Shown piece by piece: positions 1 through 21,792 of a stretch of 39,998 nt of DNA. Under the pieces are notes generated by a model that saw only the letters and a program-made list of their open reading frames with translations, had not been told where the DNA came from and searched no databases. Location of the stretch: the IMG/VR virus record IMGVR_UViG_3300007734_000679, positions 1 through 39,998 of that record; one strand, 5' to 3'. The DNA is from a virus (Duplodnaviria > Caudoviricetes). Position 1 is the stretch's first letter. Every line of letters starts with the position of its first letter. The translations under genes and the position numbers were made by a program.

Positions 1-127
1 CCCAACCATTGTTCGCAATCCATCCTTTGAAGAGGCTGTGAAGCCCGACGAAAAAACAAGGGTGGCGTTGGAAAAGAACGTTCTTCTGTTCGACACTAAG
101 GAGTTTACGTCTACTAAGTCTGACGGA
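1..127. repeat. Terminal direct repeat copy 1 (assembly overlap)
   Basis: CCCAACCATT...CTGACGGA is identical to 39872-39998. Confidence 0.97.
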
Positions 128-6100: not shown

Positions 6101-7876
6101 CGCAAGTTGTTGATTGGTCGAAAGTGGGGCGAACTTGACGCCGAAGGAAACCTAGACGCTTCTCGGATGATGAAGTTCATCAACCGAATGGTGACCGAGG
6201 GCAAGTTGGTCAAAGCGGACTTTGACTTTGTCCAAAGCGTTTGGGATCTCAATGAGGAACTGAAGCCGATGGCGCAGAAGTCGCATCGCGACCTCTACGG
6301 CTTCTACTTCAAAGAGGTTGAAGCAACGCCGCTCAACACGCCGTTTGGCACGTATCGAGGCGGATACGTTCCCGCCAAGGTTGATCCGTTCATGGTCAAG
6401 GACGCGCAGCGCAACGCCAAGATGGATGCGCTTGAAGGCAACTTCAATCAGGTGATGCCGAGCACGGGTCTTGGGTTTACAAAGTCTCGCGTTGAGTACA
6501 ACCGTCCGCTTGCGCTTGACCTGCGCATGATTGGCAAGCACATCGACGATGTGATTCGGTTTGCACACGTGCAGCCCGCAATCAAGGATGTGTTGAAAGT
6601 CATTGGCAACGAAGAGTTTGCTTCGGCGCTCTCGAAGATTGACCCGACCGCTATTGAGACAATGTTGGTTCCGTTCCTCGGTCGTGCTGCAAGGCACACA
6701 GCGGTAGAACAGGGACGGTTCAAAGCAGTCGATGATTTTTGGATTGCTGTCCGCGGTCGAACAAGTTTGATGTTCATGTCTTTGAACCTCAGGCAACTCG
6801 GCGACGTCGGCGGAATATCTGTTGCGCTTACAAAGGTGAAGAGCGGGCAGTTGGCTGCTGCGATGAAACAGTACCTTGATAGCCCGCATGAAGTAGCAAC
6901 CATGATCGGCGAATTTTCGCCAATGATGGACGAGCGGTTGAACAACCACATTAACGACACGCGCGCTCGGCTCGATGACCTGATAGGAAATCAGAGTGGC
7001 TTGGGCAAGGCTCAAGCGTTGGCGCGTAAGCACGGCATGTTCCTGAACACCGTGCTTCATAACCAGTTGGACATTGTGACGTGGCTTGGCGCATACAACC
7101 AAGCACTTGCGGAAATTGCTGCTTCAGCAGGAGACAAGGAAGCGCAACGCGAAGCGGTGTCTCGTGCCGATGCAGCCGTTCGATTGACTCAGGGCGCTAT
7201 GAATCCTGAGGACGTTGCTGCGTACGAGCAAGGCACACCGTTCTACCGAACGATCACGCAATTCACGACATACCTCAACACGTTGGCAAATCTAAACGCT
7301 GACGAGTACGGGAAGATTGTTCGTGAATTGGGAATCAGGAAGGGTGCGGGCAAATTGGTACAAGCGCATATCTTGGCGTACGCCGTACCCATGATCATCT
7401 TCGGAGTATGGACTGATTTGATCAGTGGCGGTTGGGACGATGACGATGAATCATGGGCTGCTCATGCGCTCAGTGTTCTCTTTGGTTCGTATTTCTCGGG
7501 AGGCATAGGCATGCTCCCGTTCGGATCTCAGGTGCAAGGAATTGCCGAGGCTACGATTGCAAAGTCAATTGGTGGATCGGTCATCCGCAACAAAGAGCAC
7601 ATCAACGTCAGCCCCAGTATTAATGCGTTGGAGGGTGGTGTTGTTGGTGCAGCCGATAGCGCATACAGGGCAGTGAGCGGCAAGGAAATCACTGGCAAGA
7701 ACATCAAGGACGCTCTCACGCTTGTTAGCCTGTTCACAGGCATCCCACTGAACCCAATTGGTAAGACGGTTGGGTACGCGGTAGACGTCAACAACAACAA
7801 GATCCAACCGACTGGCACCGCTGACTACATCCGCGGTTTGATTACGGGGTCAGCAAGCCCTGAGAGCAAGAAATAA
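2..7876 (+). CDS. 3' part of giant internal virion / large polyvalent protein (~3,573 aa in total, starts at 37026)
   Basis: Position 38 corresponds to 39909, the same frame as the ATG at 37026. Contains an HExxH zincin-like motif (HESSH, 3863-3877) followed by EKF..NFE.Y..EGKAP, typical of polyvalent/ejection proteins. Sits between the ejection genes and the tail fibre. Confidence 0.88.
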   Translation, partial: PTIVRNPSFEEAVKPDEKTRVALEKNVLLFDTKEFTSTKSDGAVVTERAYNSIKVEGNTAQERAENIIQQMVRNLLEIHDRIPEATRKRSKLWYMGANRISRVFAKRYGLTDRQSAAGLAVLSPQADWRMNISYWERILDISRHRQQYVWDAKMTSWADGYIESKTEEWELERLALEKSRDNANKSVLVAGKAIEGKQKKYESVLAEVDAREQLRLAELQVFEDQATEVKAARERRDITEKAAKEQRQEIAEKKSKAREAVDKARDKDNNKAIKARQEVRFAETEKRQAEREAIKRQAKVDEGNPNLLAQDFIRGMSLANVESDYARAWWIRAYDEAHNPRAFRDVTPEGDFLDFVKTDKGNNYPIGWKSFDGIAKAVSIIRDGSVENIHDQLGNEHKVRSFYNNIYAPNSLLPFLTSDTHQVAADLMEPLGSSAIEVGHNFGTGKGVGVVGPQGLKGTYWMHAEAVVRAARERGLIPREMQSITWEAIRGLFKDTFKQDEKNLESVRDLWDRYRNGEATYEETFESIVKLAAGFTEPSWVGIGSDRFLPAERGHSSYENDLAHSSVTLDESALTGEERPRNIGDVAADVSQGESGVLEQAAPVSPEFFSALKRSVDAVDAKELTGAQWKDRIATLVNKGEVKEEEIYWTGFYDFLDMQREGKITKEELAAFLQNNGVDVRVLSSEVVNAGKKTYKLSSAEYGTEIGSFASMEKAEAKIEKNFQLSMAVHESAFDRYVEQFEGRWYVSERETVTGEPSGLIFDSRESAEAYAKREKEYAIDLERQKYRTGFAIYEIELGGGGNDFNSKYDYEPLILPNGTNYREVLVTLPNFRPPVKPPSAKTLAARKAIFEKYETAIKKNDAEIRANLLNSSDMTQQEMSAHTNKRYDLGIERDQLESARDQEASQFPIPQEADALRWKIPHFGEAGEQNNVLVSTRLNDRVSEQGKPALHVEEIQSDQSAKGQDKGFQPKEGVSSSDEYLRQEDILYQRFNRSTQLGLDVLRQFDNLGFDDGDRTGPLRWLSSESNWDFENGGLDLRGLTEDQVSVLREYVAANKELRDLQNSRKRTKELVPRAPFITSTDAYVKLALKHTLMEAVKGNYKYVTFITGEQSVQRYKDALLQVIDNVRINRNEDGTYTYFAEKNGRVVRNGSDVSSEVIKETFGKEGGKELLRAADEADVDTVVRVNAENIPVGGAGMRRYYDSMVIDLANKMSKRLGGGKIESLTMSDGTVQPALEITDAMRAKINEAGGLPLFQAASKKPARASFNPKTFEVKLGHHSDMTSWVHESSHYLFETYHRMILDGSAPKWVADDFQTLLTFFGVKDNAEWNTLSFEARRKHYEKFSYNFEIYMAEGKAPTIALQPLFDRFKSWIIQVYTDVVKHQNTLYKEQFGEELPPLTDEVRRVMDRMLATEEQIRSTAEARDMKAMFQTQEEAGVSDAAWAEYQTVLSASHRDAVNELTARSMRDFQWVGNMKSKFLKELAKKNAATRRAVRDEVEEQVRAEPIFRAIDFLKYGMTTSENGERVSAENVGKLNLADAKAVLGDETAKLGYGKYGMIAKDGMPADLVAELFGFKSGDELLRALAAAKKVGDEIDARTDERMMKEHGDLNDPERMEQAANAALHNDARARAVATELNFITKATTPVKEMVAAAHEVAVDHINNRKIKDVKAHEFAVAEAKAARAARSTADSKVNPEAIGKSAGTRAYNKAIASGVDEAAAVKLGEDAAKTAAANAQERINLHKKQYGDVDPMESARRAKQHQLFNNQLAAVAGEVQEEVRDTVRGFSKFFKADSKISKSRDIEMVMAARSILSAFGFGRSDKAPIEYVKQIEAFNPELFAALEPIIARASRGAQDYREMTVAEFRALSDGVTALWNDARRDKQIMVGEKKVALAQVVGELVDRTNELGVPTEMAGDKSAPTRRQRMMRTLNGVKNMMRRVEHWCDAMDGLDNTGGPFTKYIFRPIVDAMDAYRADRTKYLKRYAELCATIELPKGRIAAPELDYTFGVGNGGVGKSELLGALLHMGNDGNMRKLLIGRKWGELDAEGNLDASRMMKFINRMVTEGKLVKADFDFVQSVWDLNEELKPMAQKSHRDLYGFYFKEVEATPLNTPFGTYRGGYVPAKVDPFMVKDAQRNAKMDALEGNFNQVMPSTGLGFTKSRVEYNRPLALDLRMIGKHIDDVIRFAHVQPAIKDVLKVIGNEEFASALSKIDPTAIETMLVPFLGRAARHTAVEQGRFKAVDDFWIAVRGRTSLMFMSLNLRQLGDVGGISVALTKVKSGQLAAAMKQYLDSPHEVATMIGEFSPMMDERLNNHINDTRARLDDLIGNQSGLGKAQALARKHGMFLNTVLHNQLDIVTWLGAYNQALAEIAASAGDKEAQREAVSRADAAVRLTQGAMNPEDVAAYEQGTPFYRTITQFTTYLNTLANLNADEYGKIVRELGIRKGAGKLVQAHILAYAVPMIIFGVWTDLISGGWDDDDESWAAHALSVLFGSYFSGGIGMLPFGSQVQGIAEATIAKSIGGSVIRNKEHINVSPSINALEGGVVGAADSAYRAVSGKEITGKNIKDALTLVSLFTGIPLNPIGKTVGYAVDVNNNKIQPTGTADYIRGLITGSASPESKK

Positions 7877-10350: not shown

Positions 10351-10459
10351 CATCACTATCTACACGATGGTCGATGGACAGTGGGTTCTGTCTTCAGGCA
10401 AAGTGAGAGTCAGCGAAGGTTGGTACTTAGTAAGTCCATCGTTTGTCGAGAACCAATGA
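10232..10459 (+). CDS. Putative o-spanin-like (Rz1-like) lipoprotein
   Basis: TTG start gives MIRFLIPIVFTALVIASASG-C, a signal peptide with lipobox ASGC; starts inside the previous gene. Confidence 0.6.
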   Translation: MIRFLIPIVFTALVIASASGCARTVLVSEGSPIRVGPSSDITIYTMVDGQWVLSSGKVRVSEGWYLVSPSFVENQ

Positions 10460-10629
10460 TGATCCCACTTTCCGAACAAGTGTTTGTTCCGCTTCATCGC
10501 GTCGAGCGAATCTCATTCTTTGCCGACTACGCGTTGATCAAGTTCATTGATCAGCGTGATGTCGAGCGCATCGACGGCGAAGACGCCGATCGGCTGCGCA
10601 AATGCATCAAGTTCACTTGGTCTGTCTGA
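10456..10629 (+). CDS. Hypothetical protein (57 aa)
   Basis: ATGA coupling with the lipoprotein stop; MMIPLSEQVFVPLHRVERI... Confidence 0.6.
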   Translation: MMIPLSEQVFVPLHRVERISFFADYALIKFIDQRDVERIDGEDADRLRKCIKFTWSV

Positions 10630-10631
10630 TC

Positions 10632-10667
10632 AAAAAAAACCGACGCAAGCGGGTGCTTTGCGTCGGT
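10632..10667 (-). terminator. Intrinsic terminator (U-tract on the minus strand; may act in both directions)
   Basis: A8 run followed by the stem ACCGACGCAA / TTGCGTCGGT. Confidence 0.7.
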
Positions 10668-10672
10668 GCTCC

Positions 10673-10701
10673 TTGAACTTTACGCATTTGCTGTGTAGAG
10701 T
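10673..10701 (+). promoter_or_regulatory. Sigma70-like promoter upstream of the structured RNA
   Basis: TTGAAC-17 nt-TAGAGT; the same -10 hexamer occurs in the promoter at 19783. Confidence 0.55.
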
Positions 10702-10703
10702 TC

Positions 10704-11040
10704 GGGTCGGACATCCATAAGAGCGGTCACATTCTACCGCTCGACGACTGAAACAATCGCGGCGCGCCGCATGAATGTAGGATTTTCCCTCGCCTTTGTA
10801 GAGTGGAAGTGGTTTAGTCGTGCGTCTTGACCCTAGCGCACGCCGCGGATTTCCGCGCGCTCGCTCGATGCACGAGGCGGTTGGTACCACCCAACGAAAT
10901 GGTGAAAGCATCGGCAGGGATACCTCGTGCGGCTCCGTATGGGCTGACTTTCCCGTGACCTCGTTTGCACGGGGTCATGGTGTTCCTGCTGCCCACCGAT
11001 GAACTGATGCGACGTCTTGCGTGGCGATGCGCATAGCGAA
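10704..11040 (+). ncRNA. Candidate ~330-nt structured non-coding RNA
   Basis: No credible ORF; upstream promoter; many helices, e.g. 10721-27/10736-42, 10833-47/11020-36, 10870-77/10923-30, 10953-64/10969-80. Confidence 0.55.
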
Positions 11041-11075
11041 CCCCGAAAAAAAATTGCGATTGATCTTCTCTCCTC

Positions 11076-11150
11076 TTGCACTCTGCCCCCGTGTAGGGTA
11101 GACTACGTAGGTCAAGCATGCCGCTTGATCACAACTAGGAGTAGAACGTC
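11076..11150 (+). promoter_or_regulatory. Early promoter-leader unit 1
   Basis: TTGCAC-17-TAGACT; hairpin TCAAGC/GCTTGA; GGAGTAGA at 11138-11145. Confidence 0.75.
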
Positions 11151-11546
11151 ATGGCAAAGAACAACCGCAAGATTTCTGAAATGACCTCGAACTACAACGA
11201 GGTTGCAAACCCGATGCGCGAAGTGGTGAGGTCAACGTCGAACGTTGCTCTTGCAAATCTGATGTCGCGTTGCGACACACTGGCTGACACGGACGCAATG
11301 ACCGCAGCCATTGAAGGCGGCGAGACGATTGATCGTCAGGCGCGCGCGCTTCGCAGTTGCACATTGTTTGCCGTCGAAATTGGCGCAATCAGCCCCGACC
11401 AGTTTCAAGTGCTGAACACCATCCGTTCATATGCGCGCGCACGCGCGTATGCACTGATGAGCGAAATTGACAGCGCCGACATGCAGAAAGCGATTCGCAG
11501 CGGTGCGTACTCGGGATCAACTGCGCTTTCCGAACTTCTGAAGTGA
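11151..11546 (+). CDS. Hypothetical helical protein (131 aa)
   Basis: Strong promoter and RBS upstream; terminator-like hairpin downstream. Confidence 0.8.
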   Translation: MAKNNRKISEMTSNYNEVANPMREVVRSTSNVALANLMSRCDTLADTDAMTAAIEGGETIDRQARALRSCTLFAVEIGAISPDQFQVLNTIRSYARARAYALMSEIDSADMQKAIRSGAYSGSTALSELLK

Positions 11547-11557
11547 CGGCGGAAAAA

Positions 11558-11594
11558 CAGAAGCGCCGCACATGAGGCGCGGCGCTTCTGCTTT
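11558..11594 (+). terminator. Terminator-like hairpin
   Basis: CAGAAGCGCCGC / GCGGCGCTTCTG 12-bp stem, flanked by AAAAA and CTTT. Confidence 0.6.
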
Positions 11595-11619
11595 GGGGAA
11601 AAGATACGGACACCATACC

Positions 11620-11931
11620 ATGAAACAAGACGAAACACCACACCGAACACCGATGCAAAAAACGCGTTGGTCTACGCAGGACGAAGCGTGGAAACTGATT
11701 CAGCCTTCGTTGGCAGGGATCGGCGTGCGGGTATTCCGCTCCATTCAGGAGCGCCCGCAGACTTGCGACGAAGTCGAGATTACTCTCGGGCTCACGCATC
11801 AAACCTGTTCCGCATCGATCAACAAACTAATGCGGGACGGGGTGATCATTTCAATTGGCAAACGGAAGACCCGATCAGGCAGAGCCGCCTGCGTGTGGTC
11901 AATTCCGTTCCCTGAAAGTCTGTTCCCATGA
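11620..11931 (+). CDS. Winged-helix DNA-binding protein
   Basis: TCDEVEITLGLTHQTCSASINKLMRDGVI...KRKTRSGRAACVW, a common phage wHTH pattern. Confidence 0.75.
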   Translation: MKQDETPHRTPMQKTRWSTQDEAWKLIQPSLAGIGVRVFRSIQERPQTCDEVEITLGLTHQTCSASINKLMRDGVIISIGKRKTRSGRAACVWSIPFPESLFP

Positions 11932-12173
11932 ACCCTCTCATCACAGATCTTGTGCTGCTCACGCACGCGGGCAAGCGGTTGAACCGTCGCGACCTTGCCA
12001 TTCGATGGAACTGCTCAATTCGAAATGTCTCGGCGGTCATCGCCGTGGCTCGTGCCAAGTTTGGGGTAGTGCTCGAAAGCCACAAACTGACAGACGGCAC
12101 GCACGCGTACGGGCTTTCCTCGTACGGCAACCTTCAACCATCAAGCATGAAGCGCAAGAGGAAGACCCGATGA
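11928..12173 (+). CDS. HTH DNA-binding protein
   Basis: LNRRDLAIRWNCSIRNVSAVI HTH pattern; ATGA coupling. Confidence 0.65.
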   Translation: MNPLITDLVLLTHAGKRLNRRDLAIRWNCSIRNVSAVIAVARAKFGVVLESHKLTDGTHAYGLSSYGNLQPSSMKRKRKTR

Positions 12174-12362
12174 ATGAAAAAGAATAAACGCGTCAACTGC
12201 GCCGTTGCCGTTGGCGCCGACATGCACAAACAGATCACTGCGCTTGCAAAGGAATACAGTGCATCGATGGGATTTCATGTGAGCCGTACAACGGTCATTC
12301 GCATGAGCCTCACCGCTTTGCTGTACTTGCGCGATCGAAAGGCAGCACGCAATGCCAAATGA
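12174..12362 (+). CDS. Putative ribbon-helix-helix regulator
   Basis: Alternating beta strand (VNCAVAV) then two helices with VSRTTVIRMSL. Confidence 0.5.
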   Translation: MKKNKRVNCAVAVGADMHKQITALAKEYSASMGFHVSRTTVIRMSLTALLYLRDRKAARNAK

Positions 12363-12480
12363 AATGGTTCGAGCAATTGCTTCTGTGGTAATTCTTGCCT
12401 CGTGCATGTTCGCGCTGTACTGCGCGCTCGCACCCATCGTCACCATTGAGGAGGACAAGCATGACGATCTCGACTCCTGA
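12352..12480 (+). CDS. Small membrane peptide (42 aa)
   Basis: MPNEMVRAIASVVILASCMFALYCALAPIVTIEEDKHDDLDS; fills the gap between neighbouring genes. Confidence 0.45.
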   Translation: MPNEMVRAIASVVILASCMFALYCALAPIVTIEEDKHDDLDS

Positions 12481-12709
12481 CATCGTGACGATCCTGCGTC
12501 AACGCATTGATCAGTGCCGATGTTTAAACGCAGTACCCGCCACACGATGTTGCGGCGGCTGCGAACATGACACTCGCTGCCTCGTAGAAATCGTCGAAGT
12601 GCGGCGCGAGCGCGACGAGGCGCGGCGCGAAGTCTGCGCCATGTCGTGCGACGATCAGAAAAGGACGGCAGAGGATCGAGGTTGGGATTGCTACAAGGAG
12701 ACACCATGA
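12461..12709 (+). CDS. Cys-rich protein with ERDEARREVC...RGWDC motif
   Basis: GAGGAGGA RBS; the motif recurs at 21097-21309. Confidence 0.7.
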   Translation: MTISTPDIVTILRQRIDQCRCLNAVPATRCCGGCEHDTRCLVEIVEVRRERDEARREVCAMSCDDQKRTAEDRGWDCYKETP

Positions 12710-12831
12710 ACCAATGCGAGTTTTCCTACGCCCCCGAGTGTGGCAAATGCGATGCTTGCGAGTCGTGGGGAGATTATGTTCGGATCTGCCATCCGACCAC
12801 AGACACGGAAGAGGAGGACAACGATGACTGA
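12706..12831 (+). CDS. Small Cys-rich protein (41 aa)
   Basis: AAGGAG RBS; ATGA coupling; CxxCxxC motif. Confidence 0.55.
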   Translation: MNQCEFSYAPECGKCDACESWGDYVRICHPTTDTEEEDNDD

Positions 12832-13066
12832 GCAGGACAGCCTGTTTCCATCGGAGAAACTTTGGCGCAAAGAATGGGTTGGCATGCCCGAGTTTGAACA
12901 ACCATGCACCGAAGCAATAATGTCTGTAACTGTTCACTTTGTGTCATACTCTGACATGCATGCGTTTGCTGCGCTTGTTGGATCGCGCATCTTGCCTACG
13001 ACCAAGAGTTTGTTTTACCCGCCACCGTCAACGCCAGTAAAAATGGTGTACACGCGTGAATCCTAG
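12824..13066 (+). CDS. Small partner protein of the TAGT-like glycosyltransferase
   Basis: EWVGMPEFEQ...VHF...AFAALVG...TKSLFYP motif, which I recall upstream of phage TAGT/GREB1-like genes; GAGGAGGA RBS. Confidence 0.7.
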   Translation: MTEQDSLFPSEKLWRKEWVGMPEFEQPCTEAIMSVTVHFVSYSDMHAFAALVGSRILPTTKSLFYPPPSTPVKMVYTRES

Positions 13067-13928
13067 ACACCCTATCTACATTGTCAGCAAGGGTAGGTGG
13101 GACAGCAGGCTTACCGCTCGTGCGCTAGATGAAATGGGTGTGCCGTACTACATCGTGGTTGAGCAGGCTGAGTACGACAAGTACGCTGCGGTGATTTGCA
13201 AAGATAAAATCCTTGTGCTTGATCAGCAGTACCTTGACGACTATCAAACGCTTGACAATCTTGGGGCGACGAAGAGTAAAGGGCCTGGATCAGCAAGAAA
13301 CTTTTGTTGGGATCACTCGCTTTTGCGCCACGGCGCAACATGGCATTGGGTGCTAGATGACAACATCAACGGTTTCGTCCGACTCAATCGCAACCAACGC
13401 ATCAAAGTTAATAGCGGCGCAATGTTTGCAGCCGCCGAGGATTTTGTAGAGCGATACGAAAATGTTGTACAGGCTGGGTTTGAGTATCGATTCTTTGCAG
13501 GCGGTGGTCGCCGTGAGAAAGCACCGTACAGAACAAACACGAGGGTGTACTCGTGCATCCTTATTCGCAACGACATCCCATTCAGATGGCGTGGCAGATA
13601 CAACGAGGACACCATTCTCTCGCTTGACATACTGACTAATGGTTATGCCACCATACTCTTCCAAGCATTTCTTCAGAACAAGGCTGCTACACAGACTGTC
13701 AAGGGTGGAAACAGCGCAGACTTCTATGACCACGAGGGGACACGACCCAAGTCGCAGATGTTGATTGATGTCTATCCACAATACTCACGCATGGTCACCC
13801 GCTATGGGCGATGCCACCACCATGTGGACTACTCATCATTTCAAAGAACTCAACTAATTCGCAAGAGTGGCGTTTCGATTCCCGATGGCGTGAACAACTA
13901 TGGCATGGTTCTAAAGGAGACAACATGA
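13056..13928 (+). CDS. TET-associated (TAGT) / GREB1-like glycosyltransferase
   Basis: PIYIVSKGR, GPGSARNFCW, HWVLDDNI (acidic metal-binding motif), RVYSCILI, WRGRYNEDT, KGGN and HHHVDY motifs. Confidence 0.8.
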   Translation: MNPRHPIYIVSKGRWDSRLTARALDEMGVPYYIVVEQAEYDKYAAVICKDKILVLDQQYLDDYQTLDNLGATKSKGPGSARNFCWDHSLLRHGATWHWVLDDNINGFVRLNRNQRIKVNSGAMFAAAEDFVERYENVVQAGFEYRFFAGGGRREKAPYRTNTRVYSCILIRNDIPFRWRGRYNEDTILSLDILTNGYATILFQAFLQNKAATQTVKGGNSADFYDHEGTRPKSQMLIDVYPQYSRMVTRYGRCHHHVDYSSFQRTQLIRKSGVSIPDGVNNYGMVLKETT

Positions 13929-14476
13929 ACACCAAGCGCGAATGGATTACGCAGAAGAACCCTGATGCAATGTTGTGGGATGGGCTTGATGCTGCGATCA
14001 TTGGCATCGCCGAACGATGCGGTCAGCCTCCGACTGCTGTGTACGATCGAGAGCAAGCAATCGCTATCTTGGCACAGGAAATGACGGAAGAGGATGCCGA
14101 AGAATATTTTGATTTTAATGTGGCATGTGCCTATATCGGCGCTCTCACGCCGTTCGTGATGGACAGAATCCCAATGCATGAACTTCACACGCGTGACTAC
14201 CTTGCCCGCCTGCGCGATCTGCCGCACCCGTCGCTGCTTGATGTAGACGAGGCGATCGCGCAGATCATTGCGCTGCGTGCCGAGGTCGAGCGCCTGCGCA
14301 CCGCCGTCACAGTGTGGTCAGCGGCGGATGCCGAGTGGATGTCGATTGATGTCCCGACGCGCACCGCACTGAACACCCTGCGCGATGCGGACAAGGCGCT
14401 TCGTGATGCAGTCGGCTTGCCGTCGCCGAGAACCTATGACGATCCGACCGAGTGGTTCGACGGGGTGACCGAATGA
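13925..14476 (+). CDS. Conserved phage hypothetical protein fused to a coiled-coil domain
   Basis: DGLDAAIIG...AVYD...EEDAEEYFDFNVACAYIG..TP family motif; C-terminal ALRAEVERLR segment. Confidence 0.75.
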   Translation: MNTKREWITQKNPDAMLWDGLDAAIIGIAERCGQPPTAVYDREQAIAILAQEMTEEDAEEYFDFNVACAYIGALTPFVMDRIPMHELHTRDYLARLRDLPHPSLLDVDEAIAQIIALRAEVERLRTAVTVWSAADAEWMSIDVPTRTALNTLRDADKALRDAVGLPSPRTYDDPTEWFDGVTE

Positions 14477-14610
14477 GCGCGTACCAGATGGATCATCCGT
14501 TTGTGGTTTCGTTCTCGGGCGGTCGTAATCAAATCAATATTCAGCCCGAACTATTTGGAGCAACCAGTGATGAAGACAACGAGATCATTCCATGTACTTG
14601 CACCGACTAA
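14473..14610 (+). pseudogene. Internally deleted remnant of a PAPS-reductase-like (PP-loop) gene
   Basis: MSAYQMDHPFVVSFSGGR|NQINIQPELFGATSDEDNEIIPCTCTD: an N-terminal SFSGGR motif joined directly to a typical C-terminal Q..LF...PCxCTD tail. Confidence 0.65.
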
Positions 14611-14622
14611 CGTGGTGAACCA

Positions 14623-15039
14623 ATGACCTTCACTGTCATCGGCATCCCTGCGGCGCAGGGCTCGAAGCGCATGGTGCGCGCGCGCGGAGGGCGCACACTT
14701 CTGATCGAGCAATCAACGCGGGTCAAGCCGTGGCGCGCAGCCGTAGCCGCTGCTGCCCGCGCAGCAGGCTGTAAACCTCGTGATGGTGATTGCGCCGTGA
14801 CGGTCAGCATCAGACTTGCGCGACCCGCGGCGCACTACAAGGCAGACGGCACCCTGCGGACAGGGCTTCCACGATTCCCGCGCCGCATCGACATTGACAA
14901 GGCGGCGCGCGCTGTGCTCGACGCGTTGACTGGGGTCGCGTACCTCGACGATCGTCAGGTGCAGCAACTCGACATCGACCGAGTGTGGTACGCCGAGGGC
15001 GGCGCCCTGATCTCGGTAGATTTCATCGAAGGCGCTTGA
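14623..15039 (+). CDS. rusA: RusA-like Holliday junction resolvase
   Basis: G.PAAQGSKR, KPWR, DIDKAARAVLDALTGVAYLDDRQV catalytic motif. Confidence 0.9.
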   Translation: MTFTVIGIPAAQGSKRMVRARGGRTLLIEQSTRVKPWRAAVAAAARAAGCKPRDGDCAVTVSIRLARPAAHYKADGTLRTGLPRFPRRIDIDKAARAVLDALTGVAYLDDRQVQQLDIDRVWYAEGGALISVDFIEGA

Positions 15040-15108
15040 CACCCTACGCGATCGACAGTATGCTGTGTCTGCGCGCCAATTATGGTGCGCCCTACAGGAG
15101 TAGACCCT
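15036..15108 (+). promoter_or_regulatory. Early promoter-leader unit 2
   Basis: TTGACA-17-TATGCT; hairpin GCGCGCCA/TGGTGCGC; GGAGTAGA at 15097-15104. Confidence 0.8.
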
Positions 15109-16008
15109 ATGGACATCTCTCTCGCATCCCGCGCTGCATCGCGGTTCTCCCCTGATCAGGTTGACCTGATCGCTCGCACCATCGCCAAGGGTTGTGGCGC
15201 CGACGAACTTTCCCTGTTCATTGCGATCTGTGATCGCACTGGGCTCGATCCCTTTGCACGGCAGATCTACGCGATCCGCCGTTGGGACAGCCGAGAGAAG
15301 CGCGAAATCATGCAGTGCCAAATCTCGATCGATGGCGCGCGCCTGACCGCGCAGCGCAGCAACGAGTACGCGGGGCAGGACGGCCCGTACTGGTGCGGCG
15401 CGGACGGCGCGTGGCGTGATGTTTGGTTGTCGGACGAGCCGCCGACCGCGGCGAAAGTTGGCGTGATGCGGCGCGGATTCACCGCACCTTTGTACGCGGT
15501 CGCTTTGTTCTCGGAGTACGCGCAGCGCGGACGCGAGGGGCAGTTGACGGGGATGTGGGGGAAGATGCCAGTCGTGATGATTGCCAAGTGCGCCGAGTCG
15601 CTTGCGCTGCGCAAGGCATTCCCCGCCGAGTTGAGCGGGCTGTACACGAGCGAGGAAATGTCGCAGGCTGACGCGCCTGCGCCTGCCGAGCGCGCGACCT
15701 CGACCGCTGCACTGTTCAGCCCGACGCCTGTCACCGCTATCGCTGTTGTCGAGCCCGCGCCTGCGCCCGCGCTGCCGTGGCCTCCATCCTGTGACGCGAC
15801 CGTCACGCCCCGCAAGATCGTGCCGCGCGGCGCCAACACTGCCGTGCTGTTCGAGGATCATCAGGGCATGAGCAACTGGGTAGCGGTTCCGAACGAGATG
15901 GCAGGCGTGATCGAGGTTGGCGTACCCGTTGACCTCGCGTGGGATTTCGACAAGGCGGGCAAGTTCTTTGTTGCCCATTCCATCACCCGAATCAAGGAGA
16001 CAGCATGA
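15109..16008 (+). CDS. bet: Phage recombination protein Bet (RecT/Red-beta family single-strand annealing protein)
   Basis: [69 protein letters not shown]. Confidence 0.92.
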
Positions 16009-16517
16009 GCCTTTACGAGATTAATCACGAACTGCTTTCGCTGCTCAATGCGCGTACCGACGCCGAGGGCAACCTCGACGAGGAAACCGAAGCCGCAATG
16101 GCGGAGCACATTGCTGCGCTCTCAATGGCGTTCGACGACAAGATTGATGCATATGCAGCACTTATTCAAACCTGCAAATCTCGTGGTGATGCAAGGCTGT
16201 CGGAGTCCCGACGCATGGCGGCGCTTGCCGAGTCGGACAAAGTGCTTGTCGCGCGCCTGCAAAAAGCCGTACTTACGGCAATGACCAGTACGGGGAAACT
16301 CGCCGCCGACACCGCGCGTTTCCGCGTGCGCGTGGTGAAAAACGGAGGCGTCGTGCCCGTGATCGTCCACGATGCAGACAGCCTGAGCGCCGAGTATCGG
16401 GTGCCCGTATACTCGGAGCGTGTGGACACCGCAGCCCTGCGCATCGCGCTAGAGCGTGGTGATGTGATCGCGGGCGCCACGCTCGGAGAGCGCGGATCCC
16501 GACTCGACATCCGATAG
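16005..16517 (+). CDS. Siphovirus Gp157-like protein
   Basis: MSLYEI...DKIDAYA...E..R....A coiled coil; ends ALERG..IAGATL.ERG.RL.IR; adjacent to bet. Confidence 0.8.
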
Positions 16518-16527
16518 ATCTACTCCG
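16518..16527 (+). promoter_or_regulatory. Antisense seed complementary to the shared early RBS
   Basis: ATCTACTCCG is the reverse complement of CGGAGTAGAT and fills the gap between the stop codon and the terminator stem. Confidence 0.55.
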
Positions 16528-16572
16528 CTCCCCTGCGCCGCGCAAGTGGCGCGGGGGAGTTTTTCTATTTTT
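16528..16572 (+). terminator. Intrinsic terminator
   Basis: 14-bp stem CTCCCCTGCGCCGC / GTGGCGCGGGGGAG, GCAA tetraloop, then TTTTTCTATTTTT. Confidence 0.9.
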
Positions 16573-16586
16573 GTTCGCCGTCGCCC

Positions 16587-16665
16587 TTGCATCCTACCGA
16601 TGCACGGGGTACGGTGTGCGTGTACCGATCGCGTGATCGGCTCGCAACACCCACGGAGTAGAACC
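16587..16665 (+). promoter_or_regulatory. Early promoter-leader unit 3
   Basis: TTGCAT-17-TACGGT; hairpin CCGATC-GCGT-GATCGG; ACGGAGTAGA. Confidence 0.8.
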
Positions 16666-17037
16666 ATGTGCAAAAAATCCCCCAGTCCTCGATCGCTTGC
16701 GACAGCCGCAGCCATCGAAGCGGTCACGAACCGCATCGAAGCGTTTAGCGTGCAATGTTGGAAGCGCCCGCGTAAACCGATGTCTCCGTATGTGCTGCGC
16801 GAGCGCGCGGCGATCGGTTTCGCTCTTGATGTCCTGTTTCAGGCGGGCATGATTGTTGAGGCCGAGCGCGCCGCGTTGATTTCCGAAATGGACACCGCCG
16901 AGCACGGCGGCAGCACATACCCAACCCTGTGTGAGGCTTGCCACGGCGTCGTGCCGCAGGCAATGTCGAACACTGTCGGTAATTCCGAAACCGCCACCTT
17001 CACCGTTTGCGATTACTGCCGACCTATTTACGCTTAA
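16666..17037 (+). CDS. Early hypothetical protein with C-terminal CxxC..CxxC zinc finger
   Basis: Follows the leader unit; CEAC...CDYC. Confidence 0.75.
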   Translation: MCKKSPSPRSLATAAAIEAVTNRIEAFSVQCWKRPRKPMSPYVLRERAAIGFALDVLFQAGMIVEAERAALISEMDTAEHGGSTYPTLCEACHGVVPQAMSNTVGNSETATFTVCDYCRPIYA

Positions 17038-17048
17038 GGAACCCCACC

Positions 17049-17348
17049 ATGTCCGAATCAACCGACAACATCGCCGCCAGTCTGCACGCCCGCATTGAAA
17101 CCTACCGCGAGGAGATCCTCGGCGCGCCGCCGAGCCCCTCTAATTTCGATTACCTGCTCCGCCTGTTCCACGGCGCGCAGGCGCTGATCGCCTACGGGGA
17201 TGAGGCGCAACTGTGGGGGCCGAGCGCCGCGCGAAACGCGTTCGCGTGGCTCGACCTCGCATGGTCGCCGCATCGCGCCGCCGAGGAGCGGCGCAGATGG
17301 CCCGCGCTGTCCGCGGCAGGGCTCGCAGGTACGGGAGGTGGCGCATGA
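17049..17348 (+). CDS. Early hypothetical protein (99 aa)
   Basis: AAGGAA RBS; coupled to the next gene. Confidence 0.65.
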   Translation: MSESTDNIAASLHARIETYREEILGAPPSPSNFDYLLRLFHGAQALIAYGDEAQLWGPSAARNAFAWLDLAWSPHRAAEERRRWPALSAAGLAGTGGGA

Positions 17349-17593
17349 GAGTAATCGCGTACACCTACGACGCCGATGTGCACTGCCCCGCCTGCACGCG
17401 CAGGGCGCTCGCCATCGGCACGCTGACCGCGGCGCCAGTGTGGAACATCGAGCCGCCTGCGACGCGCCGCAAAGACAGGCACGGCATGCCCGAAATGTTG
17501 TTTGATTCCAAGGGCAACGAAGTCGGCGCGCTGTTTAGCACCGATGAATGCCCCGAGGCGGTCATGTGCGCCGACTGCGGGCGCGAGGTATGA
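17345..17593 (+). CDS. Early zinc-binding protein
   Basis: GGAGG RBS; IAYTYDADVHCPAC...DSKGNEV..LFSTDE...CADC. Confidence 0.75.
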   Translation: MRVIAYTYDADVHCPACTRRALAIGTLTAAPVWNIEPPATRRKDRHGMPEMLFDSKGNEVGALFSTDECPEAVMCADCGREV

Positions 17594-17805
17594 GCGTCGA
17601 GGCTGCGCGCGCTGCGGCGATCGCTGCGATCTATCGACAGATCCAGTGGGTCGCCGAGCACGGCGCGCTCGACCACAGCGGCGCAGCCGCGGCGTGTATC
17701 CGCGATCAGATCACACTCAGCGCGCACATGGCGCTGATCGATGACGAGGCGCACGCCGCCATGCTCGCGGCGCTCGCCGAGGCCGAGGGCACAAATTTTT
17801 TGTAG
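17590..17805 (+). CDS. Early hypothetical helical protein (71 aa)
   Basis: GAGG RBS; ATGA coupling. Confidence 0.65.
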   Translation: MSVEAARAAAIAAIYRQIQWVAEHGALDHSGAAAACIRDQITLSAHMALIDDEAHAAMLAALAEAEGTNFL

Positions 17806-17823
17806 ATTGATTTAGCAAAGCCC

Positions 17824-17905
17824 TTGCATCCTACCGATACGGGGGATACAGTCACCACATCGGGCGCGTGCTCGATTCAGATTCACACCTCACGGAGTAG
17901 ATTCC
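17824..17905 (+). promoter_or_regulatory. Early promoter-leader unit 4
   Basis: TTGCAT-17-TACAGT; hairpin ATCGGGC-GCGT-GCTCGAT; ACGGAGTAGAT. Confidence 0.8.
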
Positions 17906-18211
17906 ATGCTTGCGACCACGATCCTGACCGTTTCATTCACCACGCCAACCGACGCGCGCGGCACCCGCGCGCGCCTCCTGCACCTGTCGCAAGATGGGCG
18001 CACCCTCCACTACCGCGGGCGCGATCACGCGCTTTCCATGACGGGCCAAGCGCACGCCGAGGCGGCGGCGTTCGCCGCCGAGCGCGGGCTGCATGTGGTG
18101 GGATGTCTGTACATCCCCGTCTACGGCAGCGGAGATTTGAAGGGCAAGCATTCGACTTGGACATTCACCCTCAGCGCCGAGCGCATCGTTTCCGAATCCG
18201 TCACATTCTGA
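17906..18211 (+). CDS. Early hypothetical protein (PT..RG.R family)
   Basis: Follows the leader unit; TPTDARGTRAR...DHALS...AHAEAA motif. Confidence 0.75.
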   Translation: MLATTILTVSFTTPTDARGTRARLLHLSQDGRTLHYRGRDHALSMTGQAHAEAAAFAAERGLHVVGCLYIPVYGSGDLKGKHSTWTFTLSAERIVSESVTF

Positions 18212-18223
18212 ACAGGAACCCCT

Positions 18224-18550
18224 ATGAACAATCACGGAAATATCATGTTGACCGTCACCGAAAACTACTACCCCGCACTGGCTGCGGAGTTCGGTTCGGG
18301 CGCCCTGCTCGACATCGACTGGGAAGCCGACCTAGTTGACGGAACTATCGAGCACGAGGTCGGCGGCGGAGCAGTCGAATGGTCGGAGCATGCGGAGGTG
18401 ATCGAACGTATGCACATCGTCGGGCTGACCATCATCGGCGACGACGACGACGACGACTGCTACAACCACGATGCTATCGGCGCGTTGCCGCGCGCCGTGC
18501 GCGCCGAACTGCGCGAAATCGCGCGCGAAGTCTGCGAGGCGACACGATGA
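18224..18550 (+). CDS. Early acidic protein (108 aa)
   Basis: CAGGAA RBS; Asp/Glu-rich, including a D6 run. Confidence 0.7.
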   Translation: MNNHGNIMLTVTENYYPALAAEFGSGALLDIDWEADLVDGTIEHEVGGGAVEWSEHAEVIERMHIVGLTIIGDDDDDDCYNHDAIGALPRAVRAELREIAREVCEATR

Positions 18551-18840
18551 GCGCCGCCATCACCGTATCCGTATCGGACGGCTCGGCAAACGCGCTTGCC
18601 TACGCCATCGGCGCTCGGCGCCGCGATATCGAGGAGCGCGTAGCGGTCGCCGAGCGCCGCGGCGCTGCCGCGGTGGTGCGCGAGTACCTGCGCGAGGATG
18701 CGCTACTCGGCGCCGTCGCGCAACAACTGGACACGGAGATGGTGGCGCTCGATCGCGCCGAGCGCGAGCAGCGCGAGGATATCGAGGGGCTCGACAGCAT
18801 CCCCGTGTGGATGTTGGGGCTGCCGATCGAGCAGGACTAG
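18547..18840 (+). CDS. Early coiled-coil hypothetical protein (97 aa)
   Basis: ATGA coupling; ends just before a terminator. Confidence 0.7.
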   Translation: MSAAITVSVSDGSANALAYAIGARRRDIEERVAVAERRGAAAVVREYLREDALLGAVAQQLDTEMVALDRAEREQREDIEGLDSIPVWMLGLPIEQD

Positions 18841-18848
18841 ACCACGAC

Positions 18849-18878
18849 GGGCACGGCTGACGCCGTGCCCTTTGTTTT
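18849..18878 (+). terminator. Intrinsic terminator
   Basis: GGGCACGGC-TGAC-GCCGTGCCC-TTTGTTTT. Confidence 0.88.
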
Positions 18879-18898
18879 CGGAATGTTGAACTAACCAC

Positions 18899-18978
18899 TT
18901 GCACCCTGCCGATCCGCAGGGTACGATGTGCCAAGCAGGCCGCGCGGTCTGCGTCCAGAACCTCACGGAGTAGATCCC
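18899..18978 (+). promoter_or_regulatory. Early promoter-leader unit 5
   Basis: TTGCAC-17-TACGAT; perfect spacer palindrome ACCCTGC-N6-GCAGGGT; hairpin GCAGGCC-GCGC-GGTCTGC; ACGGAGTAGATC. Confidence 0.82.
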
Positions 18979-19722
18979 ATGTCACGCGCCACCACCACCA
19001 CCATGTCCGTATGCTATGTGCGCACCCGTAACACCGACCGCCTCCAGTTGCGGGTGGGCGGGCGCCTCGTGGCGCTCGGCTGCAGCGCCCTCACCCGCGC
19101 CGCCAGTGCCGAATCCGACGCCGCGGCGATCCTCGCAGCCGCAGCCGCGCCGCGCGGGCTGCATGTCGTTTCGGTCGAGATGGACTGCGGGTGCGGCTGG
19201 CGGCGCAATGTGTGGACGATGCGCGCCGTGCTCGGCGTCGGCGCTGCGCCGAGCGCCGCGCCAGTCGTCACGGAATCGTTGACCGCTGCCGACGAAGCGC
19301 ACGCGGACGCCTGCGCCGAGGCGGCAGCGGAAGCGCTGTCGGACATGATCGAGGGGTACCTCGACTGCGCGCTGTGGGCGAGTGTCCCGATGTCGGAGGA
19401 TGAGAGCGCCGACCAGTCGCTGTTTCAAATCGGATACGAGCGCGCGAATTGCTGCGCCGACACATGCGCCGACGCGCGCGCAGCGTGTGAGGGGTTCGCT
19501 GAAGCGCACGGGGACGCCCTGCGCGCTGCGTTTGAGGCTTACCCCCAATACACTCCCACGGGCGCGGGGCACGATTTGTTTCTCAGCCGCAACGGGCACG
19601 GCGCGGGGTTTTTCGATCACGGGGAGCACCCGTGTTGGGATGTGTTGCAGGCGGCGGCGAGGGGGCTCGGCGCGACCGAGGATGTGGCAGAAAATGCGGA
19701 CGGAACTTGCACAGTGCGATGA
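18979..19722 (+). CDS. Early two-domain protein; C-terminal domain of the 'GHD(F/L)xLxRNGHGAGF' phage family
   Basis: YLDCALWAS...AGHDLFLSRNGHGAGFFD motif; function unknown. Confidence 0.8.
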   Translation: MSRATTTTMSVCYVRTRNTDRLQLRVGGRLVALGCSALTRAASAESDAAAILAAAAAPRGLHVVSVEMDCGCGWRRNVWTMRAVLGVGAAPSAAPVVTESLTAADEAHADACAEAAAEALSDMIEGYLDCALWASVPMSEDESADQSLFQIGYERANCCADTCADARAACEGFAEAHGDALRAAFEAYPQYTPTGAGHDLFLSRNGHGAGFFDHGEHPCWDVLQAAARGLGATEDVAENADGTCTVR

Positions 19723-19726
19723 TGCG

Positions 19727-19761
19727 ACGGGCAGGCTCACCCCCTGCCCGTTTCTTTTTTT
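19727..19761 (+). terminator. Intrinsic terminator
   Basis: ACGGGCAGG / CCTGCCCGT stem followed by TTCTTTTTTT. Confidence 0.88.
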
Positions 19762-19782
19762 CGAGATTCTGACCCGAGCCCC

Positions 19783-19863
19783 TTGCATCCTACCGATAGA
19801 GGGGATAGAGTCCCTCTACCGCGCAGCGTGCGCGGCTCAGACCCCCTTCAACGGAGTAGAACC
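19783..19863 (+). promoter_or_regulatory. Early promoter-leader unit 6
   Basis: TTGCAT-17-TAGAGT; hairpin CCGCGCA-GCG-TGCGCGG; ACGGAGTAGA. Confidence 0.8.
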
Positions 19864-20208
19864 ATGACAACCATGACCATGACCACCATCGCCGCCGCCG
19901 ACCTTCAGTTCGCAAACCACCATGCGTACACGGATGTGAACCCCTACGAGATCGTTCGTCGCATCAGCAACACAACAATTGAGGTTCGCCTGATGGACGC
20001 GGTTCGCGATCCGTCTTGGAAGTGCGACTTCATCACGGGTGGCTTCTTCGGTCACACCGCCAACAACCACTCGCAACGGTGGACGATGACGAGCAACCCG
20101 AACAACGACGTCATTCGGATTCGCCTGACCAAGCGTGGATGGCAGCACAAGTCAATGCGATTCGTGCTTGCTGCCAAGCCAATTCACTTCTACGACTACA
20201 ACTGCTGA
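19864..20208 (+). CDS. Conserved phage early hypothetical protein (114 aa)
   Basis: YTDVNPYEIV...TIEVR...GGF.GH..N..Q.W...RL.K.GW...FYDYN family pattern. Confidence 0.8.
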   Translation: MTTMTMTTIAAADLQFANHHAYTDVNPYEIVRRISNTTIEVRLMDAVRDPSWKCDFITGGFFGHTANNHSQRWTMTSNPNNDVIRIRLTKRGWQHKSMRFVLAAKPIHFYDYNC

Positions 20209-20224
20209 AAAAAGGAAAACGACC

Positions 20225-20434
20225 ATGTACCTACCCGCCAACAAAAAACAACCCCTTCACCTCGGCGCCCCTGACTGCGAAACGCTCGCCCGCCTCAGCA
20301 AGTTCGCGCTGCTCGACCTGCTCACCGAAGCCCTGCGCGCAAACGCGGGGCATTGCGACACGCCTTGCACGCTCGAGGAAGTGCGCGAGTTCTGCGCGAC
20401 CACCCTCGCAGCCCGCGGGGATCGCGCAATCTAA
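20225..20434 (+). CDS. Hypothetical protein (69 aa)
   Basis: AAGGAA RBS; followed by a hairpin cluster. Confidence 0.65.
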   Translation: MYLPANKKQPLHLGAPDCETLARLSKFALLDLLTEALRANAGHCDTPCTLEEVREFCATTLAARGDRAI

Positions 20435-20486
20435 ACCGAGCAAAGGCATCTACACTCTGCCGCTCGGATAGGTCGCGACGCGACCC

Positions 20487-20521
20487 GAACCGCCCCGACA
20501 ATCTCGGGGCGGTTTCGCTTT
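20487..20521 (+). terminator. Intrinsic terminator
   Basis: AACCGCCCCGA-CAATC-TCGGGGCGGTT then TCGCTTT. Confidence 0.7.
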
Positions 20522-20558
20522 ACACACCACGCAAACCACCTACACTAGGAACACCCAA

Positions 20559-20840
20559 ATGCTCACCGAACACGCCTACCCCATCACCGACGCCGCCCAG
20601 TGGAAAGGCGCCGTCACCGCACACCTCGCCGAGCACGGCGTGAGCCGTTACGCCCTCACCCGCGCCGCACACGCTGCCGAGGTCTGCGCATCGCATACCT
20701 GCGAGTGCCTGCTCGCCTCCCCCGACACCGTCACAGGGCAGCGCATGCCCTCACTCGCCCTCGCGATCGACATCGCCCGACTCGCAGGGCTCGACCTAGT
20801 GCTAGTTGCCCGAGCCGTCCCCCTCACACCACGACCATGA
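20559..20840 (+). CDS. XRE/Cro-like HTH protein
   Basis: GVSRYALTRA...RMPSLALAIDIARLAGLDLVL, an XRE-type C-terminal pattern. Confidence 0.65.
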   Translation: MLTEHAYPITDAAQWKGAVTAHLAEHGVSRYALTRAAHAAEVCASHTCECLLASPDTVTGQRMPSLALAIDIARLAGLDLVLVARAVPLTPRP

Positions 20841-21100
20841 CCCTGATCACCCGAGCCGTAGGCATCCATCCCACCCTCGGCGTCGTGCGCGCCGCAGCCA
20901 TCACACGATCCCATCGCGAACACAGCAGCGCGCATGATTCTCTCCGCGACGCACTGCGCGCGCGCGGAGCCTCTCGCATATGGGTAGGCTCAGGCACGCC
21001 CGTAGCAGACTCGGACGCAGGTGCTCGAGAAATCGAATCCGTGCAGACGCGCGGATTCGCCACGCCACTGCGCGAACGCGAGAGCAGGCGCCCCCTATGA
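20837..21100 (+). CDS. Hypothetical protein (87 aa)
   Basis: ATGA coupling at both ends. Confidence 0.55.
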   Translation: MTLITRAVGIHPTLGVVRAAAITRSHREHSSAHDSLRDALRARGASRIWVGSGTPVADSDAGAREIESVQTRGFATPLRERESRRPL

Positions 21101-21309
21101 GCACACGCACAGCAGCCGCAGCACGAGCCGCTACGATCGCCGCACAGGCTGCGCAGGCAGACGCAGAGCGCAGGGCTCGCAGGATCCTCGGAGAGCGTGA
21201 CGAGGCACGCACACTCGTGTGCGCCCTAGATGTTGCTGCAGGCACATACGCGACACTAGAAGCCGCCGCCGAAGCCCGAGGGTGGCGCTCGGCGCAGAGT
21301 CGGAAATAG
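21097..21309 (+). CDS. Hypothetical protein with ERDEAR..VC...ARGW motif
   Basis: ATGA coupling; motif shared with 12461-12709. Confidence 0.6.
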   Translation: MSTRTAAAARAATIAAQAAQADAERRARRILGERDEARTLVCALDVAAGTYATLEAAAEARGWRSAQSRK

Positions 21310-21336
21310 CGGGAAGTTCCAACGGAAACCAACACC

Positions 21337-21792
21337 ATGCCACGCAAGCAACAACCACCACAGCACCTAGTCACACGACCACGCGGCCGCCCTGTCACAT
21401 TCGACCATGCCGTGGCGGATGAGATCCTCGCCCGAATCTCGGAGGGTGAGTCGCTGCTCTCGGTGTGCGAGAGCGCGCACATACCTGCGCATTCGACGGT
21501 TTGCGGGTGGGTTGTTGATGATAGGGACGGCTTTGCCGACCGCTACGCGCGCGCTCGCCGACTCTGCGCCGAGCGTTGGGCTCACGAGGTGCTCACGCTG
21601 TCCGACGCGGCGCCGATCGTGGCGCCCGATGGCCGCGTTGACTCCGCAGCCGTGCAGCACCAACGGCTGCGCGTCGATTCGCGCAAGTGGCTGTTATCGA
21701 AGATCGTGCCGAAGATCTACGGCGACCGTGTGGCGCTCGACCACGCAGGCGGCGTCGCTATAACCGTGCTTACGGGCGTGCCTGACGCGTGA
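21337..21792 (+). CDS. terS: Terminase small subunit (Sf6 gp1-like)
   Basis: GRP...EI..RISEGESL..VC....P..STV..W...F..RYARAR...RLRVDSRKWLLSK..PK.YGD. Confidence 0.92.
   Translation: MPRKQQPPQHLVTRPRGRPVTFDHAVADEILARISEGESLLSVCESAHIPAHSTVCGWVVDDRDGFADRYARARRLCAERWAHEVLTLSDAAPIVAPDGRVDSAAVQHQRLRVDSRKWLLSKIVPKIYGDRVALDHAGGVAITVLTGVPDA

Follow-up and report, generated by a model that had tools for sequence, protein, structure and literature searches.

A putative anti-RBS seed at the 3' end of a phage annealing-protein operon co-varies with the first gene's ribosome-binding site

In the icaR messenger RNA (mRNA) of Staphylococcus aureus, a motif in its 3'-UTR (UTR, untranslated region) that is complementary to the Shine-Dalgarno sequence (SD) is reported to pair over 7 nucleotides (nt) with the SD region of that mRNA itself, and the published account leaves action in cis or in trans open (PMC3868564; PMC7821165). 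The Vibrio cholerae RNA CarZ is described with a 3' seed that pairs with the 5'-UTR of the first gene of its own operon, and OppZ, from the same bacterium, acts at an internal gene of its operon (PMC7398697; PMC9438474). Streptomyces s-SodF is presented as a processed, trans-acting mRNA 3' end complementary to a 5' end/ribosome-binding site (RBS) (PMC3919588), and in phages P1 and P7 the c4 antisense RNA pairs over a short stretch with a phage RBS region and so blocks it (PMC12197685). A related layout has been analysed here in the whole of IMG/VR record IMGVR_UViG_3300007734_000679, from an uncultured tailed phage (Duplodnaviria; Caudoviricetes); its 39,998 bases are called the window throughout. 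The element is an anti-RBS seed, TCTACTCC, located between an intrinsic terminator and the last gene, of the gp157 family, of an operon whose first gene encodes a RecT/Bet single-strand annealing protein.

As in icaR, a 3' anti-SD motif is able to pair with the SD of the same mRNA, judging by the sequence and by the predicted folds of four messages. The icaR case is described for one gene, with the motif 260 nt past the stop codon in a long UTR and with RNase III cleavage (PMC3868564), whereas the phage operons have two to several genes, the seed starts 0-32 nt past the stop and is fixed to the terminator, and the pairing runs on beyond the SD core in the 3' direction and shows phylogenetic covariation. 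The phage locus resembles CarZ and OppZ in that the operon ends in a seed with an intrinsic terminator after it, and in complementarity to an RBS of the same operon, in the phage case by sequence and covariation only. The Vibrio RNAs are described as cut by RNase E and dependent on Hfq, with intramolecular pairing excluded for OppZ (PMC7398697), whereas Hfq is rare in the phage's likely host phylum. Unlike c4, described as a structured Rfam family that targets an antirepressor operon (PMC12197685), the phage element has no Rfam match (the search of window positions 10400-21400 gave one match, at E 3.2, below the cut-off and located elsewhere), and s-SodF differs in its 19-nt match to another gene, which is not autoregulatory (PMC3919588). 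The best reading is that the phage element would work like icaR and CarZ; by geometry and complementarity it is a candidate for the class of 3'-UTR-derived small RNAs (sRNAs). Two other systems are related in part: the full-length hok mRNA, of a toxin-antitoxin system, is silenced by a 3'-to-5' fold-back and activated by 3' trimming, and the start-associated sequences of mycobacteriophages are extended SD motifs repeated at early starts, for which we know of no complementary RNA. Searches of the literature outside subscription papers listed no description of the seed-terminator element; three supplementary files of PMC10690425 were not covered and may bear on novelty, and six others mention gp157 solely as a gene that lies downstream of candidate structures.

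The count proposed in an earlier sequence-only reading of this stretch has revealed six copies of GGAGTAGA, the complement of the seed, all on the plus strand and each 3-5 nt 5' of an ATG, and a single copy of TCTACTCC, at 16519, two bases past the gp157 stop and immediately 5' of the terminator. That reading had worried that a match of this length could occur by chance, which was not borne out: a first-order Markov model predicts 0.20 copies of GGAGTAGA and 0.14 of TCTACTCC per plus strand, and 6e-5 copies of TCTACTCC in a 25-nt slot. The complementarity between seed and leaders is real and not a matter of chance. The longest complements that the reading gave for the six leaders (8, 8, 9, 10, 11 and 9 nt) were reproduced. 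Of the 10-nt anti-RBS stretch that it had proposed, the tenth nucleotide, G16527, belongs to the terminator as the first base of the stem and is predicted to be paired (unpaired probability 0.08); the free seed is therefore a core of 8-9 nt, predicted to be open in the 3' fragment (unpaired probability 0.84-0.99, opening cost 0.2 kcal/mol).

Pairing strength was estimated from ViennaRNA duplex energies. Against the 47 listed starts of the window, the six leaders ranked 1-6, with predicted energies of -19.7 to -15.0 kcal/mol (next start, -13.0), and the core that they have in common is exactly the 8 nt exposed by the seed. With the 16S tail of the likely host phylum the same leaders are predicted to form weaker duplexes (-6.7 to -10.7 vs -15.0 to -19.7 for the seed). 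The 16S 3' tail was canonical, GGATCACCTCCTTTCT, in 30/30 Planctomycetota loci and did not pair with TAGA, which is therefore not explained by the host-type 16S tail, as the earlier reading had argued for the canonical anti-SD. The host anti-SD as source of TAGA has been rejected on these canonical tails and on duplexes weaker than those of the seed.

Searches with RecT and gp157 yielded 172 loci (numbered with L below) in which the gp157 3' region is complete, 129 of them with a recognisable annealing-protein start at most 4.8 kb upstream; after the 43 loci without one had been dropped, 63 unique leader/3' pairs were obtained. The gene upstream of gp157 in these relatives is RecT, ERF (13/16 scanned) or a third type without Pfam match. 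All 63 pairs were tested over the first 48 nt from the gp157 stop. The mean longest complement between the own leader and the own 3' region was 6.46 nt, vs 5.04 +/- 0.21 nt for swapped pairs, a difference reached in 0/10,000 permutations at 30 clusters (75% gp157 identity) and 11/10,000 at 13 clusters; a complement of at least 7 nt was found in 17/30 clusters, and in 53% of the own pairs as against 15% of the foreign ones. When the test was restricted to the 57 pairs with a called hairpin (6 without one were dropped), the result held by length and by energy at 27 and 34 clusters. Tested as the earlier reading had suggested, an anti-RBS seed recurs in related phages before the gp157 terminator and co-varies with the leader (0/10,000 permutations).

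The seed is specific to the gp157 terminator. Compared with the nearest upstream leader, gp157 terminators gave a mean complement of 7.0 nt (n=15) and other terminators one of 3.6 nt (n=19, maximum 5; p=5e-7), and against any leader at least 7 nt was reached by 11/22 gp157 terminators vs 4/161 others. The annealing-gene RBS is also a better partner than the RBS of gp157 itself (6.5 vs 4.7, p=0.0002, n=30). In 20 of 21 loci that had been picked for a 7-nt match, the seed ended -2 to +4 nt from the terminator stem; across the 21 it started 0-32 nt after the stop. In two loci (L121:8228 and L122:10627, minus strand), convergent terminators located just past the gp157 terminator are preceded 5' by 7-10 nt complements of early leaders.

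Leader and seed change together among the relatives. The GGAGTAGA/TCTACTCC pair of the window recurs in L003 and L171, and GGAGTAGG/CCTACTCC is found in L005, L024, L100, L107 and L168; single loci carry AGGAGAAG/CTTCTCCT (L105), GGAGACACA/TGTGTCTCC (L199), CGAGGAGAT/ATCTCCTCG (L033), CGAGAGGAT/ATCCTCTCG (L066), GCAAGCGA/TCGCTTGC (L054) and GAAAACA/TGTTTTC (L006). Between sister clades, GAGGAGAT/ATCTCCTC is replaced by GAGAGGAT/ATCCTCTC, and in L106 the CTCC has been lost and GTAGAGA/TCTCTAC pairing is retained outside the SD core. A gp157 tree (61 rows, with L018 and L022 left out) revealed two main clades with several independent seed/leader switches, in which RecT, ERF and the third gene type are interleaved. 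Seed-leader pairing persists through exchange of RecT for ERF or the third type, and in two comparisons (L114/L115 vs L119/L180, and L128/L129/L131 vs L036) the annealing gene has been exchanged with leader and 3' end unchanged. Covariation was analysed position by position in 15 loci that had been chosen for carrying GGAG and CTCC: beyond the GGAG core, positions 5 (TA/AT/GC) and 6 (AT/CG) were paired in 15/15, position 7 in 13/15 and position 8 (AT/GC/CG) in 10/15, with double changes at all four positions.

These data are best accounted for, with a probability of roughly 0.55, by autoregulation of the annealing operon, in which the seed would pair with the operon's own RecT RBS and the full message would thereby block translation of the annealing protein. 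Ribosomes would load during ongoing transcription of the message, of about 1.5 kb, and the finished 3' end would then fold back onto the RecT start, most simply in cis, or meet that start on another copy or as a decay fragment. With the RecT start closed, the dose of annealing protein per message would be capped and its translation limited to the time before the 3' end exists. Whole-message folding, as an equilibrium of naked RNA, predicted the seed paired with the own RBS in the four messages folded (window, P 0.81-1.0; L003; L005; L066), and the seed-RBS duplex is perhaps stacked on the terminator stem. No conserved internal promoter for a separate sRNA was found (promoter-like sites near the gp157 end occur in 5/29 loci and are scattered), and the seed is therefore likely to be the end of the full message or a decay product. 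Hfq was above the cut-off in 1/61 Planctomycetota genomes (second set, 0/2), the phylum of the likely host, weakly assigned; given this rarity, pairing would probably be independent of Hfq, and a chaperone-free, intramolecular duplex is favoured. In this phage, the five other early leaders with the same site would also be hit if the pairing works in trans.

Several observations weigh against autoregulation of the operon. Covariation speaks for pairing and not for its sign, so that repression is an assumption; a duplex of 8 bp is short, and the equilibrium fold of a naked 1.5-kb RNA ignores ribosomes. A clear seed is missing in about a third to a half of the lineages: the complement was shorter than 7 nt in 13/30 clusters, with no seed in L008, L009, L089, L093, L095, L147/L149/L154/L157 and L018/L022, and with only 5-6 nt or G-U-containing matches in L010, L017, L094, L101/L102, L114 and L126. 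Position 8 is mismatched in L096, L098 and L170 (A-C, uncompensated) and in L102 and L105. The energy test of the 57 pairs was not significant at 6 deep clusters (1018/10,000), and the own leader ranked among the best 10% of candidate starts in 14/39 loci by length and 8/39 by energy, with crude gene calls. Overall, own and other early leaders did not differ significantly as partners (6.65 vs 6.0; n=23, including one miscalled row; p=0.09); in the window, L003 and L105 a different leader outpairs the own one, and in L090 the seed, ACTCTCCCG, has its best match (9 nt) in the RBS of the operon's second gene and not in that of ERF (8768, 10507-10535), which may be a sub-operon case similar to OppZ.

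The sequence-only reading had proposed that the 3' end, either within the message or as a stable fragment, acts in trans by pairing with every promoter-proximal early leader and sets the time at which early translation stops. This regulon-wide shut-off is doubtful, although it agrees with the six leaders sharing the exposed 8-nt core and being the best six of the 47 starts, and with several leaders matching the seed in L003 (5/5), L108 (four downstream leaders), L105, L033, L066, L049 and L199. The part of the proposal that did not stand is its generality, the own annealing-gene leader being the partner kept constant across lineages: in L024, L098, L102, L106, L171 and L006 the seed matches this leader only, and the other promoter-proximal leaders match by 3-5 nt. 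In the complete genomes G404 (L106) and G405 (L098), 26 and 17 hairpin sites, respectively, were examined, and none gave another seed for the cores that the leaders have in common (the leader pattern did not pick up the ERF leader of G405). Early leaders also have common cores of 7-12 nt where no seed fits (L095, L101, L106); since leaders are homogenised there without a matching seed, the six shared leaders alone do not imply a regulon. Trans pairing over 8 bp without Hfq would, in addition, be demanding. In L094 a stand-alone non-coding unit (3029-3245, plus strand) with a TTGACA-17-TAGGAT promoter-like site and a terminator carries, 5' of the terminator, the seed CTCCTTGTC, complementary by 7-9 nt to all seven early leaders. 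Separate from the operon, this unit could act in trans only, but it is one case, and its counterpart in L095 matches by 6 nt only (by eye). Own-operon control is best read as what is conserved at the core, and regulon-wide control may have been added to it in some lineages, this one among them. More tentatively, early timing might be achieved by RNA only, with a chaperone-free guide at the 3' end (in L094, a stand-alone RNA) directed against a co-evolving RBS barcode and shutting down the whole regulon, itself included.

The remaining explanations fit fewer of the observations. That no RNA pairing takes place, the C/U-rich stretch before a G-C stem fitting any SD by composition, ancestry or inverted copying, or the pair acting as DNA, would agree with the overlap of CTCC with the C-runs of the stems, with the resemblance of clade-B seeds to an unrelated ATCTTTTCCCC element and with the third or more of lineages without seed; it is nevertheless unlikely in view of the lower scores of swapped pairs, of gp157's RBS and of other terminators, and of the double changes that both clades show beyond the GGAG core, L106 even pairing without CTCC. 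Slightly more remote is a closed loop in which the duplex would hold the RecT start near the gp157 stop and terminating ribosomes would melt it, freeing or re-using the RecT start and tying RecT output to that of gp157. The seed starts 0-16 nt past the stop in 20/21 loci, which is within or near the reach of a terminating ribosome, and gp157's own RBS is not a seed partner, but the seed is anchored to the terminator stem (-2 to +4 nt) and not to the stop (0-32 nt), with 32 nt in L199. The seed could also be the RBS of an antisense gene, an open reading frame (ORF) at 16510-16166 on the minus strand (114 amino acids, aa), with GGAGTAGA on that strand 8 nt 5' of its ATG. This has been rejected as highly improbable: a start with at least 50 codons is present in 9/30 relatives only and in two different frames, the ORF has no PHROG match, no minus-strand promoter-like site was found downstream in the window, and the leader covariation would be left unexplained. 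CsrA, present in 17/31 genomes of Planctomycetota, was considered as binding the GGA leaders; it would leave the complementary seed unexplained.

Table 1. Coordinates of the operon, the early leaders and the non-coding elements in the window.
Feature	Position	Strand	Basis or occurrence
Gene of the RecT/Bet single-strand annealing protein (the operon's first)	15109..16008	+	profile matches
Gene of the gp157 family (Pfam Sipho_Gp157; PHROG 253 Mu Gam-like), the operon's last	16005..16517	+	profile matches
Promoter-like site of the operon (TTGACA 15036, TATGCT 15059) with a 5' hairpin and, as conserved partner, the own RBS GGAGTAGA (15097-15104)	15036..15108	+	
Anti-RBS seed TCTACTCC (putative)	16519..16526 (16517-16527 against best leaders)	+	sequence count; predicted open; co-varying in relatives
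Intrinsic terminator, 15-pair stem 16527-16560, GCAA loop, U-tract, abutting the seed	16527..16572	+	folding z -5.9
Early leader and its promoter-like site; gene 11151, GGAGTAGA at 11138-11145	11076..11153	+	
Early leader and its promoter-like site; gene 16666, GGAGTAGA at 16655-16662	16587..16668	+	
Early leader and its promoter-like site; gene 17906, GGAGTAGA at 17894-17901	17824..17908	+	
Early leader and its promoter-like site; gene 18979, GGAGTAGA at 18967-18974; best partner (11 nt)	18899..18981	+	
Early leader and its promoter-like site; gene 19864, GGAGTAGA at 19853-19860	19783..19866	+	
Conserved structured non-coding element, about 220 nt	10790..11005 (aligned 10760-11040)	-	also in L003, L005, L006, L036, L043, L057, L062, L076, L090, L093-L096, L098, L101, L102, L106
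Candidate ATCTTTTCCCC RNA, about 60 nt	11605->11550	-	also in L003:5800, L006, L008, L089, L090, L093, L094:10589, L095, L102, L106

The features of the locus are collected in Table 1. A promoter-like TTGCAY/TTGACA-17-TAnnnT pattern precedes all six leaders by 44-53 nt, most of which have a hairpin at their 5' start, and the only further site with this pattern in the window is on the minus strand, within a gene for a protein of 2612 aa. This protein (38-7876) belongs to PHROG 9880 and DUF7178. A spacer CCTACCGAT...GGG is common to four early promoters (16587-16615, 17824-17852, 18899-18927 and 19783-19811) and is possibly an operator or activator site. The early region, with small genes, RusA, RecT and gp157, extends from 11151 to about 21100, and terminase, head-tail adaptor, capsid and tail genes follow from 21337 on; a glucosyltransferase-like gene (PHROG 842) was found at 13056-13928.

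The gp157 profile matched 3 loci in 185,579 species genomes (2 labelled Planctomycetota, 1 Rhodothermales), and in the genomes of Planctomycetota gp157 and the capsid protein were each matched in 6/401, the latter with 31-49% identity. From these matches a planctomycete host is plausible, although weakly assigned. Among 50,697 records of annotated phages, gp157 had no tblastn match. One metatranscriptome (X1, share 0.16) contained 18 contigs of relatives, none of them 99% alike and none spanning 16372-16738.

Other non-coding elements were observed on the minus strand. The element of about 220 nt is located between late and early genes and occurs in both clades, in 22 distinct loci; 18 aligned copies showed double changes in 19/30 predicted pairs, and TCACCATTTCG and TAGGGTCA are nearly invariant. 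It had no Rfam match, the three uncovered supplementary files of PMC10690425 possibly bearing on its novelty too, and it may be more novel than the seed finding. It could be a large structured RNA or a single-strand origin, and none of the scanned ORFs of the window was recognised as a replication gene. Downstream of it, a non-coding unit (window 10630-10740, minus) comprises a TAGAAT box, a hairpin and a strong terminator (10660->10631), and most relatives have a counterpart with promoter-like site and terminator after the element. The candidate RNA of about 60 nt, found in 11 clade-A phages, consists of ATCTTTTCCCC, a hairpin and a U-tract, often preceded, 6 nt away, by a TAnnnT box and its -35, and about 6/15 matches of the ATCTTTTCCCC pattern in viral contigs have the same layout. 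Its seed is invariant, it had no Rfam match, and a conserved phage target was looked for and none was found; it is possibly aimed at a host RNA or protein.

Judged by sequence comparison, the seed and terminator at the end of the annealing operon are conserved and the seed co-evolves with its leader, and they are a likely phage variant of 3'-end anti-RBS control. Control of an mRNA's own RBS by its 3' end is known from few single bacterial genes (icaR, CarZ, OppZ). Here it would form a conserved co-evolving module across a family of uncultured phages, which outlasts replacement of the controlled gene and probably works without Hfq, as a compact, retargetable off-switch of 8-9 nt. The natural compensatory variants are ready test pairs for the question of cis or trans action, and if the trans reading were true, the element would be an RNA-only timer of phage early genes.
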